Shown: piece after piece, positions 91 through 1,992 of the stretch | Layout of the letters: each line of letters opens with the position of its first letter | How positions within the stretch are numbered: the first letter of the stretch is position 1 | Source of the DNA: a virus | Taxonomy: Duplodnaviria; Heunggongvirae; Uroviricota; Caudoviricetes | DNA length: 7,321 bases | IMG/VR virus record: IMGVR_UViG_2645728091_000010 | Reading direction: 5' to 3' (one strand) | The notes under the pieces: model-generated | Databases searched by the model: none | Told to the model about the DNA's origin: nothing | Seen by the model: the letters and a program-made list of their open reading frames with translations, nothing else | Made by a program: the position numbers and the translations under genes

Positions 91-884
91 GCTACTGGTG
101 GCGTGTACTCAATGCCATTGTGCGTGGTGCTCCAGTGCTCCGGCGAGTGCGGAGAAAATTCCCCCGTTTTCAGGTTAAGCACACCATTAGTGAACGGTAG
201 CAAATCACCGGACGGCTCCCCCATGGGGTCGGCAATAACTTTTAACGCTTCCACGGCGTTATTGATTACACGTTTGCTGAACGTGGCCCTGTGCTCTGAA
301 TAGATCGCCACCATTTCGCGGCTCAGCTCCATTGTGCTGACCGGACACCATACCCCGCCGCGCCATACGTGGACGATTTCACTTTCTGCATGAACACAAA
401 CACCATCAAAGCGATCGGCAAGTAGTTGTGCCCGCTCACTGTCTGCCATCTGTGAAAGTTGCGCCTTTTGCTTCGTCGGAAGATTAAGCACCAGGCTTTC
501 CCCACGCTCGCATTCCTCTTTGAGTCGCGGCAACTGGTCGGATAAATCCACGGGGCTGGTGTCAGTAATCCCCGCGTATTCGTGTACGGTCTTCACTCCA
601 GCCACAGCCAGTAACGTAACAATCTGCGTCATGCTGTGCTCTGTGATATGTCCTGCGCGGTAAACACGCACACACTGACGATCTTCATCAATGATCCGGT
701 AATCGGTGATGTTTTTCAGTTGCTCATCAGCCAGCACGACAGGCGGCACATCGTCGGCGGCAATATGTTTACCCGCCCATTCCTGCCACTCTTTCGCATG
801 GCTCCACGCATCACTACCTGCAAAGATGATTACCTCTGTCAGTCTGTCGCGTGGCTGTTTTTTTAAGTTCGGTGCCAGTTTCAT
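91..884 (-). pseudogene. Primase-like replication protein (P4-alpha / toprim-D5_N type), 3' end interrupted by the IS terminus
   Basis: ATG at 884 overlaps the upstream ORF stop (ATGA). It contains an IIDED (DxD) motif and an NGVLNLKTGEF..HSPEH segment reminiscent of phage/plasmid primases (P4 family). The native sequence ends at ...EYTPPVA; the remaining codons (CLLIRSPDQETSSPGNPQPYPEV) are read from the IS terminal repeat to a stop at 18-20. Confidence 0.5.
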
Positions 885-1180
885 TTTTTGCCCCTGAATG
901 CGTTAATCATGCTTTTCATTTTCTGGATGTTTCCCCGCGCTTTTTCCCTGCTGGTGGGCTTACTGCGGGGTGCGGCATATACCAGGGAAAAATCACGACG
1001 GAACTGATAAACAGGCATCACGCAGTCATAGCTATACCCCTCACGGCGGTAAGTGATGCGCCGTTCTGCCACGCCTTTAATCGTTACCGTGCCGCCGTAT
1101 TTATCGCGGTAAATATCGCCGTTCATAAATTCAGGCCGAGCGGGGCCGCTAGCAATAAAGCCAGAATTTTTCATTTCCAT
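881..1180 (-). CDS. Hypothetical protein (99 aa), basic C-terminus; translationally coupled to the primase-like gene
   Basis: ATG start at 1180; its stop overlaps the primase-like start (ATGA at 881-884). No domain recognised. Confidence 0.45.
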   Translation of the reverse strand: MEMKNSGFIASGPARPEFMNGDIYRDKYGGTVTIKGVAERRITYRREGYSYDCVMPVYQFRRDFSLVYAAPRSKPTSREKARGNIQKMKSMINAFRGKK

Positions 1181-1197
1181 ATTATTTATTCTTCGAC

Positions 1198-1419
1198 TTA
1201 ACTCGACTTATTTGATAGCAGGGCACTATTTATTGCGTCATTGAGTTTTTCTGCTGCTTCATCAATAAGTGACAACAGGCCATAAGCAATATTTGCATCT
1301 TCATTGTCATTTATGCAATCAAGCCACATATTTAATATTGCTTTTGCTGAATTATTTAAAGTTAATGAACTCTCTGCACATGCTAACAATTTAAAAAAGA
1401 CTTCTCGTTCTGTATTCAT
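1198..1419 (-). CDS. Hypothetical small acidic protein (73 aa), AT-rich gene
   Basis: ATG at 1419 directly follows the TAA of the upstream ORF, with GGGGGA six nt upstream. The gene is visibly more AT-rich than its neighbours. Confidence 0.45.
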   Translation of the reverse strand: MNTEREVFFKLLACAESSLTLNNSAKAILNMWLDCINDNEDANIAYGLLSLIDEAAEKLNDAINSALLSNKSS

Positions 1420-1611
1420 TTAATCCCCCACCAGCTTACTTTCTTCCTCAATCAAAAAACTAGCGACACTTCCCGAAAGACGCGCCAGTAGGCTCGCCAG
1501 TGCGGATATATCAGCATCTGTAATTTTGTTCGGGTATACCTCAAGAAGGCGGCAAATAATCTCTGTTTGGTGCGCACGTTCAGCGGCTTCGTGTAATGTA
1601 ATTTCCTGCAT
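1420..1611 (-). CDS. Hypothetical protein (63 aa)
   Basis: ATG at 1611 overlaps the upstream stop (TAATG), with AAGAGGTG seven nt upstream. Confidence 0.45.
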   Translation of the reverse strand: MQEITLHEAAERAHQTEIICRLLEVYPNKITDADISALASLLARLSGSVASFLIEEESKLVGD

Positions 1612-1796
1612 TAATGCACCTCTTTTAATTCATACACTGCTGAAATAATGACTTGTGATAAGCCATATTCTGATGATTCGCTTCTCACCGCAGCAATAGC
1701 CGTCTGAACATTAACAGCCTTCACGTTCTGAGCGATACCAATTGTGTGGCCTAGTGGGTTAACCGCACGAGCAAATACACGGAAGGTTTTAAGCAC
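1611..1796 (-). CDS. Hypothetical protein (61 aa), GTG start
   Basis: GTG at 1796 is preceded by AGGAGG with a 6-nt spacer and overlaps the end of the upstream ORF. Confidence 0.4.
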   Translation of the reverse strand: MLKTFRVFARAVNPLGHTIGIAQNVKAVNVQTAIAAVRSESSEYGLSQVIISAVYELKEVH

Positions 1797-1992
1797 GGCA
1801 TACCTCCTGACGAATACGGGCGGCGAATATCATCACGCAGCCAGTTGGGGATTGTTGGCGGGCTTCCTGTTCGCTGGTGGCCTCGATGGTAATCACGCGC
1901 GGTTGTGCCGTACTCAGGGCGATAAAACGCCAGATGTATTTATTCAGGTTGTGCGGGTCCCGCCCTTGCGGGTGTGTGGTATGATTTCTCAT
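1789..1992 (-). CDS. Hypothetical protein (67 aa), first gene of the leftward operon
   Basis: The internal ATG at 1992 with GAGGT upstream is preferred over the GTG at 2052 given in the ORF track. No domain recognised. Confidence 0.35.
   Translation of the reverse strand: MRNHTTHPQGRDPHNLNKYIWRFIALSTAQPRVITIEATSEQEARQQSPTGCVMIFAARIRQEVCRA

Follow-up and report, generated by a model that had tools for sequence, protein, structure and literature searches.

The region 881-1992 of the window (the whole stretch of DNA that was analyzed, 7,321 nt) is probably the early replication-leader operon of a Gram-negative PICI, an assignment that includes the regulatory model proposed below. Judged from gene content and position, the element that holds this operon is a Gram-negative PICI of the helper-embedded type (HE-PICI), sited in lambda gene E. 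The whole is an ordinary representative of a known satellite family, and the five ORFs by themselves are no discovery. The preliminary description had proposed a satellite early operon in which small genes for regulation or for action on the host precede the replicase, and this proposal holds.

Identity and Setting of the Element

The following features of the window define the element and its surroundings:

1-90 (no strand assigned): terminal 90 bases of the IS4-family ISEc13, with 100% identity to ISEc13 ends in many E. coli genomes
91-884, minus strand: PICI primase/replicase, N-terminal 264 codons, truncated (Pfam D5_N; phrog_864, DNA primase)
2351-3076, plus strand: 241-aa cargo gene in a variable slot downstream of the ribbon-helix-helix (RHH) gene (sub-threshold NCBIfam matches only)
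3117-3350, minus strand: alpA, PICI activator/excisionase family (Pfam Phage_AlpA, E 6.5e-15)
3352-4638, minus strand: tyrosine integrase (Pfam Arm-DNA-bind_3 and Phage_integrase; annotated by RefSeq in the relative L001)
4751-7321, minus strand: lambda-type helper late genes, namely the 5' part of E, then D, C/Nu3, and the 3' part of B (97.7-99.6% identity to lambda and phage 2B8)

The int and alpA genes were co-oriented on the minus strand upstream of the operon, with transcription directed inward, and the primase/replicase module, whose gene is truncated here, lay downstream of the regulatory region, as is expected of a PICI. The RefSeq start of the integrase is equivalent to about position 4587. 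The helper late genes were on the same strand as the satellite, in agreement with the HE-PICI type. In E. coli N1420, EC4, and MN06021, the same element interrupted E, the gene for the major capsid protein, and the same five genes are annotated by RefSeq in near-identical elements. The intact relative L001 was about 10.3 kb long and, in the part that the 7,321-nt window stops short of, had SSB, major capsid, decoration, HTH, and terS genes only, without lysis or tail genes; its capsid was of the lambda type. This size and content are those of PICIs (about 10-15 kb, with few capsid or packaging genes). The 241-aa cargo gene gave no significant Pfam, PHROG, or PADLOC match, and its slot was filled in other elements by SWIM+DUF2971 or other genes. 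Helper-dependent induction, replication, and packaging have been published for 11capE and EcCICFT073, and by analogy with these two the present element would also depend on a helper.

The operon had been described as ending in a primase-like gene. A replicase gene does lie directly downstream, but the present copy is cut at position 91 by ISEc13. Since homology to natural elements ended at position 91 and bases 1-90 were the end of ISEc13, the gene is not intact; intact homologues have 583 aa (L001), and the replicase has a conserved N-terminal domain of about 100 aa. Against TIGR01613, the P4-family alpha primase model, the truncated product scored 18.5 bits (cutoff 108.7), the C-terminal part of the protein, to which the model applies, having been lost through the IS insertion.

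Coupling and Coding Status of the Five Small Genes

The genes of the operon are listed in the order of transcription:

2001-1997, minus strand: Shine-Dalgarno GAGGT of ORF1
1992-1789, minus strand: ORF1, Icd-like, 67 aa, ATG start, first cistron (NF033153, phrog_6196)
1796-1611, minus strand: ORF2, 61 aa, GTG start, 8-nt overlap with ORF1 (phrog_3672, E 6.5e-46)
1611-1420, minus strand: ORF3, 63 aa, acidic, TAATG junction (phrog_1478, E 2.5e-34)
1419-1198, minus strand: ORF4, 73 aa, acidic (phrog_2196, E 2e-28)
1180-881, minus strand: ORF5, RgdR family (DUF4222), 99 aa, ATGA-coupled to the replicase (PF13973, 83.2 bits, cutoff 27)

The five co-oriented minus-strand ORFs at 881-1992 (67, 61, 63, 73, and 99 aa) were followed by the primase-like ORF from position 884. 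The junctions were, in order, an 8-nt overlap (GTGCTTAA, ORF1/ORF2), TAATG, TAA|ATG, a 17-nt gap, and ATGA into the primase. The Shine-Dalgarno sequences of ORF1 (GAGGT), ORF2 (AGGAGG), ORF3 (AGAGG), ORF4 (GGGGGA), and the primase (AGGGG) were good, whereas that of ORF5 was weak. Coupling is broken at ORF5 because of this weak Shine-Dalgarno and the 17-nt gap in front of it. The five consecutive, coupled ORFs of 61-99 aa with overlapping or abutting codons, as first described, were confirmed by ORF calls, RefSeq annotation, and dN/dS; the credible Shine-Dalgarno sequences ascribed to all of them were found for ORF1-4 and the primase but not for ORF5.

Using orthologues about 70-80% identical in other PICIs as the reference, the dN/dS was 0.47 for ORF1 (range 0.2-0.47), 0.24 for ORF2 and 0.23 for ORF3 (range for these two 0.23-0.26, dS about 0.8-0.9), and 0.24 for ORF5. 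For ORF4, dS against L005 was saturated, so the gene was scored against the more distant L006, L002, and L007, giving 0.34-0.65; within the ORF4 family the value was 0.24 (L005 vs L006). Differences between the ORFs and their orthologues were in excess at the third codon position. All five ORFs matched a PHROG family (E 1e-28 to 1e-56), and these families were conserved over their full length. By these comparative measures, the five small genes are real, protein-coding, and under purifying selection, with dN/dS of about 0.2-0.5 overall. Non-conservation in related elements, one of the outcomes that had been named as fatal to the proposal, was not borne out. In PADLOC, none of the five operon genes, the RHH gene, or the 241-aa cargo gene matched any model.

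Organization across Related Loci

The loci for comparison were collected in two ways. A scan of species-dereplicated genomes with the DUF4222 profile yielded 4 loci only; a scan of IMG/VR by the leader motif was far more productive, and the leader motif is thereby fixed by construction in the resulting set. The gene order in the census of 77 loci was Icd-like, one to six interchangeable small ORFs, DUF4222, and replicase. DUF4222 was present in 71 of these loci, where it was invariably the last gene ahead of the replicase and always ATGA-coupled to it. The most frequent junction offsets were -8 (98 cases), -4 (78), and -11 (39), and the canonical junction had the form CAGG[AG]GGT-N6-ATG. The same architecture was found in EcCICFT073, O157 OI-51, E. 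albertii, E. ruysiae, and Serratia. The synteny comparison that had been suggested thus gave a constant layout, with conserved ends and variable middle ORFs. Compared across loci, the middle genes are drawn from a pool of interchangeable small cassettes set between conserved SD-ATG-stop junctions.

The ORF4 family (71-81 aa, with a W-L-E/D...N-E-R-D motif) occurred in 39 of the 77 loci and invariably adjoined DUF4222 on its upstream side. The ORF3 family occurred in 11 of 77, including the second operon gene of EcCICFT073. An exhaustive phmmer search with ORF3 returned 46 cluster representatives, nearly all of 60-90 aa and stand-alone, with no informative fusions; in one locus, L073, ORF2 and ORF3 were fused. 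At the position of ORF2, homologues were found in O157 PICIs (67% identity) and in E. albertii (49%), and the start codon in relatives was ATG. Word-indexed homologue searches with ORF4 and ORF2 returned near-identical E. coli proteins only. ORF2 had no match in Pfam, NCBIfam, PADLOC, or PDB, and ORF4 none in PDB or Pfam; PDB sequence-profile searches with the families of ORF2, ORF3, ORF4, and DUF4222 reached a best E of 0.026, to unrelated proteins. The AF2 model of ORF2 (pLDDT 65, with five models in disagreement) was unusable for a fold search. The idea that ORF2 arose by duplication and divergence of the Icd-like domain was rejected (hhalign probability 0.1%). ORF2-4 may be lineage-specific accessory factors.

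Families of the First and Last Genes

None of the products had been recognized in the preliminary description, which stands for ORF2-4, still uncharacterized, but not for the two ends of the operon. Profile and structure searches, as had been proposed there, placed ORF1 and ORF5 in families and were uninformative for ORF2-4.

ORF1 scored 68.8 bits against NCBIfam NF033153 (cutoff 25). The PICI Icd-like profile aligned with P1-type Icd at an hhalign probability of 96.7% (E 4.4e-10, 33% identity over 51 columns), and on this profile evidence the homology of ORF1 to Icd of phage P1 is genuine. By analogy with this homologue, 33% identical, the Icd-like protein probably arrests host division during island replication. 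A longer version of ORF1, of 87 aa from GTG-2052, is unlikely because its start falls within the conserved leader hairpin.

Over 99 aa, ORF5 shared 71% identity with the DUF4222 protein that OI-51 of EHEC O157 encodes at the rgdR position. Residues 20-22 of ORF5 were NGD, not the RGD of RgdR. The core of its AF2 model (pLDDT about 90) was a five-strand SH3/KOW-like barrel with a basic C-terminal helix. Fold searches with the DUF4222 model gave generic SH3/KOW/PWWP-type barrels only in PDB (best E 0.025) and uncharacterized phage proteins or DUF1653 in BFVD (best E 3e-4); the predicted structure therefore gives a fold class without a function. DNA binding and regulatory phenotypes of RgdR have been published (PMC3378721). 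LEE1/T3S activation and motility repression are the phenotype of ECs1581 and c1493 only, and the engineered RgdR R20N gave type III secretion below wild type (PMC3378721). RgdR was encoded by all E. coli PICIs analyzed in another study (PMC6092414). By analogy with the homologue of 71% identity, RgdR is probably a nucleic-acid-binding accessory factor of the replicase.

Promoter, Operators, Leader, and the Divergent RHH Gene

The region in front of ORF1 contained the following features:

2110-2138, minus strand: sigma-70-type promoter with -35 TTGACA at 2138-2133, a 17-nt spacer, and -10 TAGTAT at 2115-2110 (best scan site, 10/12 positions)
2089-2132, minus strand: two operator-like half-palindromic repeats, mutually inverted, O1 at 2132-2120 (in the spacer) and O2 at 2101-2089 (about +2 to +14)
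2028-2063, minus strand: conserved two-tier hairpin in the 5' leader, after the promoter
2132-2326, plus strand: divergent RHH gene, 64 aa, whose ATG overlaps the operon -35, candidate cognate repressor (Pfam HicB, PHROG Arc-like)

The TTGAC of the -35 and its placement were kept across about 70 loci. O1 and O2 flanked the -10 hexamer, and the repeat pairs, although element-specific, were placed identically in every locus. The RHH gene was found in nearly all promoter-bearing loci. Its product scored 23.4 bits against Pfam HicB (cutoff 21) and E 4.6e-7 against the PHROG Arc-like repressor model, and the family profile matched P22 Arc at E 1.7e-4. The predicted beta-strand had one invariant Arg with hypervariable neighbours. 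Median identity between RHH proteins was 0.98 for the same operator type vs 0.29 for different types, whereas the corresponding values were 0.33 vs 0.30 for AlpA, 0.88 vs 0.87 for the Icd-like protein, and 0.70 vs 0.64 for DUF4222. Across these alleles, the operator sequence tracks the RHH protein and not AlpA, Icd-like, or DUF4222. This pairing is a correlation between adjacent sequences; the Icd-like alleles, equally adjacent, were without it. AlpA was tried as the operator-specificity partner and rejected, one operator type occurring with up to five AlpA types. The RHH protein may thus be the operon repressor, and the RHH gene with its operators is likely to be the immunity determinant, located outside the five-ORF region in which immunity functions had initially been sought. 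The EcCICFT073 cycle has been shown to need AlpA and to be activated by it (PMC6092414). In the present element, oppositely oriented cargo stands between alpA and this promoter.

The leader hairpin had the same fold in 28 of 28 sequence variants, with dG of -9 to -24 kcal/mol, z down to -6, and many compensatory changes in the stem. No Rfam family was matched by this hairpin. A ProQ/FinO protein is among the products of some islands. RNAalifold on MAFFT-aligned leaders missed most of it because the leader variants differ in length; folding of single variants recovered it. The leader as a target of the C4/isrK RNA of relatives was rejected, as duplex energies were no better than shuffled ones (z -0.5 to +0.9).

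Alternative Explanations

The element had at first been taken as P4-like, and the ORFs as possible immunity or helper-derepression genes. On this account, the region would be a P4-type early leftward operon, its ORFs analogues of kil, the CI region, and epsilon that would confer immunity and derepress a P2-like helper. Much as in P4, integrase and alpA are followed by small ORFs and a primase; P1 Icd, the homologue of ORF1, lies next to the C4 immunity RNA and downstream of it; and in the relatives L012 and L014 isrK and C4 RNAs lie directly upstream of the Icd-like gene. However, no C4, CI, isrK, or other relevant family was matched when the whole window was searched against Rfam at E<=1, and the C4 antisense RNA that masks the ribosome-binding site in the Icd family was not found here; the analogy with the P1/P4 immunity regions therefore stands for the homology of ORF1 and for some relatives but not for an immunity RNA in the window. 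The host prophage is lambdoid, not P2-like, and the intact element has lambda-type capsid, decoration, and terS genes. Pfam, PHROG, and NCBIfam scans of the genes in the window showed no sid, psu, delta, or epsilon, none of these is annotated in the intact L001, and no ORF belonged to epsilon or any antirepressor family. A tblastn search with ORF1 against 50,697 phage records gave a single match, the 16.5-kb 'Escherichia phage vB_KppS-Ant', and P4 was not among the results. A P4-type operon is thus very unlikely, the element being instead a helper-embedded PICI in lambda E, and nothing was found in support of immunity or helper-derepression functions for ORF2-4.

Another explanation is that the operon, or the Icd-like gene with its partners, is chiefly an abortive-infection or superinfection-exclusion module sensing a foreign phage protein, and not a replication leader. 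It draws on a six-gene 'prophage' locus of ECOR61, with a DNA primase and an Icd-like protein among its products; growth was inhibited upon expression of phage orf24, and the effect was gone without the Icd-like gene (Silas et al., bioRxiv 10.1101/2023.04.06.535777). That locus resembles the present operon in composition. However, reconstitution in a laboratory strain gave an effect described as muted, no PADLOC model was matched by any of the five ORFs, and a life-cycle role is indicated by the coupling to the replicase, constant across 71 of 77 loci, so that a chiefly defensive operon is improbable, although less so than a P4-type one. Abortive-infection and replication-leader roles can coexist. 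It was also considered that ORF2-4 are non-functional spacer frames, serving only to pass ribosomes on from icd-like to rgdR and the replicase. The number (1-6) and identity of the middle ORFs differ among elements, and the searches gave ORF2-4 no function, domain, or confident fold, which would suit such frames. Nevertheless, dN/dS was 0.23-0.26 for ORF2 and ORF3 at dS of about 0.8-0.9 and 0.24 within the ORF4 family (L005 vs L006), every middle ORF belongs to a PHROG family conserved end to end, and the position of the ORF4 family is constant across 39 loci; mere spacer frames are the least credible of these explanations, and barely so at all. The replication-leader operon is accordingly retained as the preferred reading.

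Proposed Mechanism and Implications

In the proposed mechanism, transcription of the operon would begin near 2103, driven by the near-consensus promoter (2138-2110). While the island is quiescent, this promoter would be kept off by the divergent Arc-like RHH protein on O1/O2 beside the -10, and helper induction would turn the operon on. Possible routes are the loss of RHH repression, AlpA-dependent transcription, and, in the embedded setting, Q-antiterminated helper late read-through via int and alpA. Translation of icd-like would be handed by coupling to the downstream cistrons and finally to the replicase. The Icd-like protein would halt host division while the island replicates, and RgdR would help the replicase as a nucleic-acid-binding factor, changed host gene expression being a side effect. 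In the present copy, this pathway would be dead-ended because ISEc13 cut the primase gene.

The comparison of 77 loci provides an operon grammar: Icd-like opens the series, swappable cassettes follow, and RgdR is always coupled to the replicase. Work on RgdR has so far dealt with virulence regulation in EHEC, and the comparison makes it a core life-cycle gene of these satellites. The RHH gene and its operators are a concrete candidate for the repressor of Gram-negative PICIs; the repressor question was left open by the 2018 description of these elements (PMC6092414). If the RHH-operator pairing is true, it would define immunity types among co-resident islands and explain the site of cargo or defence gene expression. 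Stl is the master repressor of SaPIs, and rexAB is carried on the lambda cI transcript. A broader and more tentative proposal, which we regard as possible though doubtful, is that the master-repressor module of Gram-negative PICIs consists of a tiny Arc-like RHH protein and element-specific operators in an Stl-like role. In this proposal, the operators would clamp the promoter of the operon from icd-like to the replicase, cargo genes would be carried on the transcript of the repressor, islands would exchange cassettes for host- or helper-directed effectors in the small-ORF array at constant SD-ATG-stop junctions, the Icd-like protein would also act as a growth-arrest effector, and the leader hairpin would be a second checkpoint, at the RNA level, possibly read by lambdoid helper antitermination.

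Comparison with Known Systems

The element matches the published HE-PICIs of the 11capE type: int and alpA form its upstream end, and a replication zone that includes a primase comes next. The 'Bro zone' of that paper is here the RHH gene and the 241-aa gene, without any Bro-network gene; the operon from Icd-like to DUF4222 was not dissected there, and the ISEc13 insertion in the primase gene is specific to the present copy.

EcCICFT073 (Fillol-Salom et al. 2018, PMC6092414) has the same order of int, alpA, a divergent small RHH gene, Icd-like, small ORFs, DUF4222 (c1493), primase, SSB, capsid, and decoration, and also shares a gene of the ORF3 family and the layout of promoter, operator, and leader. 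It differs in its integrase and site (adjoining roxA, outside any prophage), in having four middle ORFs of partly different families, and in its RHH subfamily and operator type (TGGGCCACACC). RgdR (ECs1581) of OI-51/CP-933C (Flockhart et al. 2012, PMC3378721) is likewise a DUF4222 protein of 99 aa whose gene overlaps the replicase gene just downstream; it has RGD where NGD is found here, and the downstream replicase is a RepA-type helicase there and a primase here.

In the immI operon of P1 (c4 RNA, icd, ant), an Icd homologue also leads and the downstream genes overlap its stop codon, and C4 and isrK are kept upstream of Icd-like in some PICI relatives. However, the C4 RNA is absent here, icd-like precedes small ORFs, rgdR, and the replicase where P1 has an antirepressor, and control would be by a protein repressor. 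Compared with the SaPI system of Stl and str-xis-pri-rep, the RHH protein is unrelated and far smaller, RHH repression and its relief by the helper are putative here, and Gram-negative PICIs are reportedly switched on by the activator AlpA. In both systems, a repressor gene, here a candidate one, is divergent from an operon leading to the replicase, and the element-specific operator types found here resemble immunity types.

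Gene Content of the Early Operon

The five small ORFs upstream of the primase-like replicase gene were delimited as follows.

1992-1789, minus strand: ORF1, 67 aa, ATG start
1796-1611, minus strand: ORF2, 61 aa, GTG start
1611-1420, minus strand: ORF3, 63 aa
1419-1198, minus strand: ORF4, 73 aa
1180-881, minus strand: ORF5, 99 aa
Start at 884, minus strand: primase-like ORF, next after ORF5

The overlapping or abutting codons of the preliminary description were found again, the junctions being, in order, GTGCTTAA (8-nt overlap), TAATG, TAA-ATG, a 17-nt gap, and ATGA. The Shine-Dalgarno (SD) sequences, regarded there as credible, were convincing upstream of ORF1 to ORF4 and the primase gene, but weak for ORF5. 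All five ORFs were under purifying selection. In orthologue pairs with other islands at dS of about 0.5-0.9, dN/dS was 0.47 for ORF1, 0.24 for ORF2, 0.23 for ORF3, and 0.24 for ORF5; for the ORF4 family it was 0.24 between the related loci L005 and L006, and 0.34-0.65 between the window ORF4 and more distant members. Differences were over-represented at third codon positions. Moreover, every ORF had a full-length match to a PHROG family (E 1e-28 to 1e-56), and the RefSeq annotation of near-identical elements comprised exactly the ORF1-ORF5 gene set. The purifying selection and the full-length PHROG matches indicated that the five frames were real genes, which confirmed the observation.

Products of the Operon

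None of the products had been recognised from the sequence alone. This held for ORF2, ORF3, and ORF4, which had no significant match in Pfam, NCBIfam, PADLOC, or PDB, but not for ORF1 and ORF5. ORF1 scored 68.8 bits against NCBIfam NF033153 (cutoff 25), and the Icd-like profile of phage-inducible chromosomal islands (PICIs) aligned with Icd of a P1-like Punavirus with an hhalign probability of 96.7% (E 4e-10). Judged by these profile matches, ORF1 is an Icd-like protein. In the window lineage, the shared N-terminal peptide (MRNHTTHPQGRD...) seemed to be fused directly to the Icd domain of ORF1.

ORF5 scored 83 bits against DUF4222 (cutoff 27) and shared 71% identity over the whole length with the DUF4222 protein of the O157 island OI-51. 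The latter was taken as RgdR because of its 99 aa, the RGD at residues 20-22, and the described position of rgdR; the same residues of ORF5 were NGD, not RGD. RgdR bound DNA non-specifically, activated LEE1, and repressed motility (PMC3378721), and it was encoded by all E. coli PICIs analysed by Fillol-Salom et al. (PMC6092414). The AlphaFold2 model of ORF5 (core pLDDT of about 90) displayed an SH3/KOW-like barrel of five strands and, after it, a long basic helix, and fold searches with it returned generic small barrels only. The predicted fold is compatible with nucleic-acid binding, and does not assign a specific function.

Homologues of ORF2 occupied the same operon position in O157 islands (67% identity) and E. 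albertii (49%); its AlphaFold2 model was unusable. The ORF3 homologue was the second operon gene in EcCICFT073, the model Gram-negative PICI, and nearly all of the 46 cluster representatives related to ORF3 were stand-alone proteins of 60-90 aa. The ORF4 family was divergent (71-81 aa) and lay directly upstream of DUF4222 in 39 of 77 loci. In one IMG/VR contig (L073), the second operon gene was a 125-aa ORF in which an ORF2-type and an ORF3-type protein were fused in frame; the fusion may be natural or a sequencing error. This one locus hints weakly at joint action of the two proteins.

Promoter, Operators, and RHH Gene

The following features were found ahead of the operon.

2138-2110, minus strand: sigma-70-like promoter, TTGACA-17-TAGTAT, the best such site in the region
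2132-2120: operator-like repeat O1, flanking the -10
2101-2089: operator-like repeat O2, flanking the -10
2132-2326, plus strand: ribbon-helix-helix (RHH) gene, divergent from the operon, its ATG overlapping the -35
2351-3076, plus strand: 241-aa cargo gene, directly downstream of the RHH gene
2063-2028, minus strand: two-tier leader hairpin, downstream of the promoter

Both the -35 hexamer and the location of the promoter were conserved across loci. The operator pair was present at the same positions in every element, with an element-specific sequence of the form GTG-N5-CAC (about 20 types), and nearly every locus carried a small divergent RHH gene. The window RHH protein matched Pfam HicB above the cutoff and an Arc-like repressor in PHROG, and the family profile matched P22 Arc with E 1.7e-4.

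Median protein identity between loci with the same or a different operator type

RHH: same 0.98 (minimum 0.89); different 0.29
Icd-like: same 0.88; different 0.87
DUF4222: same 0.70; different 0.64
AlpA: same 0.33; different 0.30

The operator type thus strictly tracked the RHH gene, and not AlpA, Icd-like, or DUF4222. Since the equally adjacent Icd-like gene was indifferent to operator type, the pairing is not explained by linkage alone. From this co-variation, we infer a role for the RHH protein as cognate repressor of the operon, which makes it a candidate for the master repressor in Gram-negative PICIs. Whether these islands possess such a repressor was called unclear in the 2018 EcCICFT073 paper (PMC6092414); no later paper on it was found in the literature searched, many subscription articles lying outside it.

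The 241-aa gene matched nothing significantly in Pfam, PHROG, or PADLOC and is possibly defence or moron cargo. Its slot was variable, being occupied in related islands by SWIM+DUF2971 or by ORFs of 118, 147, 176, or 449 aa, and its genes would be co-transcribed with the RHH gene. The leader hairpin retained the same fold in all 28 sequence variants, with many compensatory changes; it matched no Rfam family, and no U-tract came after it. A second, smaller structure, an invariant stem (2017-2013/2005-2001), adjoined the SD.

In two related loci, isrK and C4 antisense RNAs lay immediately upstream of the Icd-like gene (L012, 5804-5989; L014, 5353-5541), and L012 lacked a recognisable promoter. 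Accordingly, RNA-based and protein-based control seem to be alternatives ahead of the same operon. The Rfam int-alpA RNA (RF02996) was detected between int and alpA in L010, L011, L012, and L015, and not in the window.

Operon Layout across Related Loci

The census comprised 77 loci, from E. coli genomes and an IMG/VR scan with the conserved leader motif. The order was constant: leader, Icd-like gene, between one and six small ORFs (about ten families in all), DUF4222 (71 of 77), and the replicase last. As to the conservation on which the preliminary description made its proposal depend, the first and last genes were core, the ORF4 position was semi-conserved, and ORF2 and ORF3 were accessory. 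The replicase was a primase, a DUF927 protein, or a RepA-type helicase, all with a common N-terminal domain of about 100 aa (MK.APNLK.QP.D..TEVIIFAGSDAW.HA..., phrog_2850; window 600-884, compared with L008, L010, and L017). Conservation of the module thus extends from DUF4222 into that domain. Among 329 junctions, overlaps of 8 nt (98), 4 nt (78), and 11 nt (39) were found, those of 4 nt nearly all at the DUF4222-replicase junction. The canonical junction was CAGG[AG]GGT-N6-ATG-N2-T[AG]A, which places the SD of the next gene within the C-terminal coding sequence of the preceding one.

Setting of the Element

Natural E. coli islands matched the window at positions 91-4700 only. Bases 1-90 were the end of an ISEc13 element (IS4 family; 100% identity to many E. 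coli copies), so that the primase is cut at junction 90/91, after about 264 codons. This insertion was found in no complete E. coli genome of the collection. With its replicase destroyed, the window island is probably immobile and replication-defective.

On the other side, 4751-7321 comprised the lambda head genes B, C/Nu3, and D and the 5' part of E (97.7-99.6% identity). Integration of the satellite into E, the lambda-type major capsid gene of a prophage, was seen in both loci below.

Window: 4700-5022 and 4751-7321
L001, the locus with an intact relative: 5491-6279 and 16660-16905

The 100-aa ORF at 4720-5022 consisted of the N-terminal portion of E joined to att-flanking sequence. In E. 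coli N1420, a lambdoid prophage had its major capsid gene split around the same element of about 10.3 kb, whose part past the primase comprised a small ORF, SSB, major capsid and decoration genes of its own, an HTH gene, and terS. This helper-embedded configuration was described by Tommasini, Mageeney and Williams (PMC10111431).

Proposed Mechanism

In the quiescent island, the operon would be held off by the RHH protein. Helper induction might then lead to expression through loss of repression, AlpA, or read-through. Published work identifies AlpA as the activator of EcCICFT073 (PMC6092414), and late transcription of the helper could, where the island is embedded, run through the co-oriented int and alpA. 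Ribosomes may be passed along from the icd-like gene to the replicase. The Icd-like protein would arrest host division, RgdR would help the replicase on nucleic acid, with deregulation of host genes as a by-product, and ORF2-ORF4 might serve as accessory factors.

The Icd-like module possibly has a role in defence or abortive infection: Silas et al. (bioRxiv 10.1101/2023.04.06.535777) described an ECOR61 locus of Icd-like and primase genes with growth arrest upon phage gene expression. Such a role would be compatible with the proposed one in the life cycle.

Comparison with Known Satellites

The small ORFs had been likened to the early leftward operon of P4. A satellite early operon was indeed present, but the element was not of the P4 type. 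In contrast to P4-type satellites, no sid, psu, delta, or epsilon was found in profile scans of the window genes or in the annotation of the intact element, and C4, CI, and isrK RNAs had no match anywhere in the window, even at E ≤ 1. The window element is a helper-embedded PICI. In the P1 immI region, C4 lies upstream of Icd as in L012 and L014, unlike in the window lineage, which is without isrK and C4. The most interesting by-products, all three inferred computationally, were the RHH-operator pair as an immunity module, the cassette grammar of the operon, and the conserved hairpin in its leader. The operon itself is real but ordinary: it is the early operon of a satellite whose type is known, and the same layout was present in EcCICFT073, OI-51, E. 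albertii, E. ruysiae, and Serratia.
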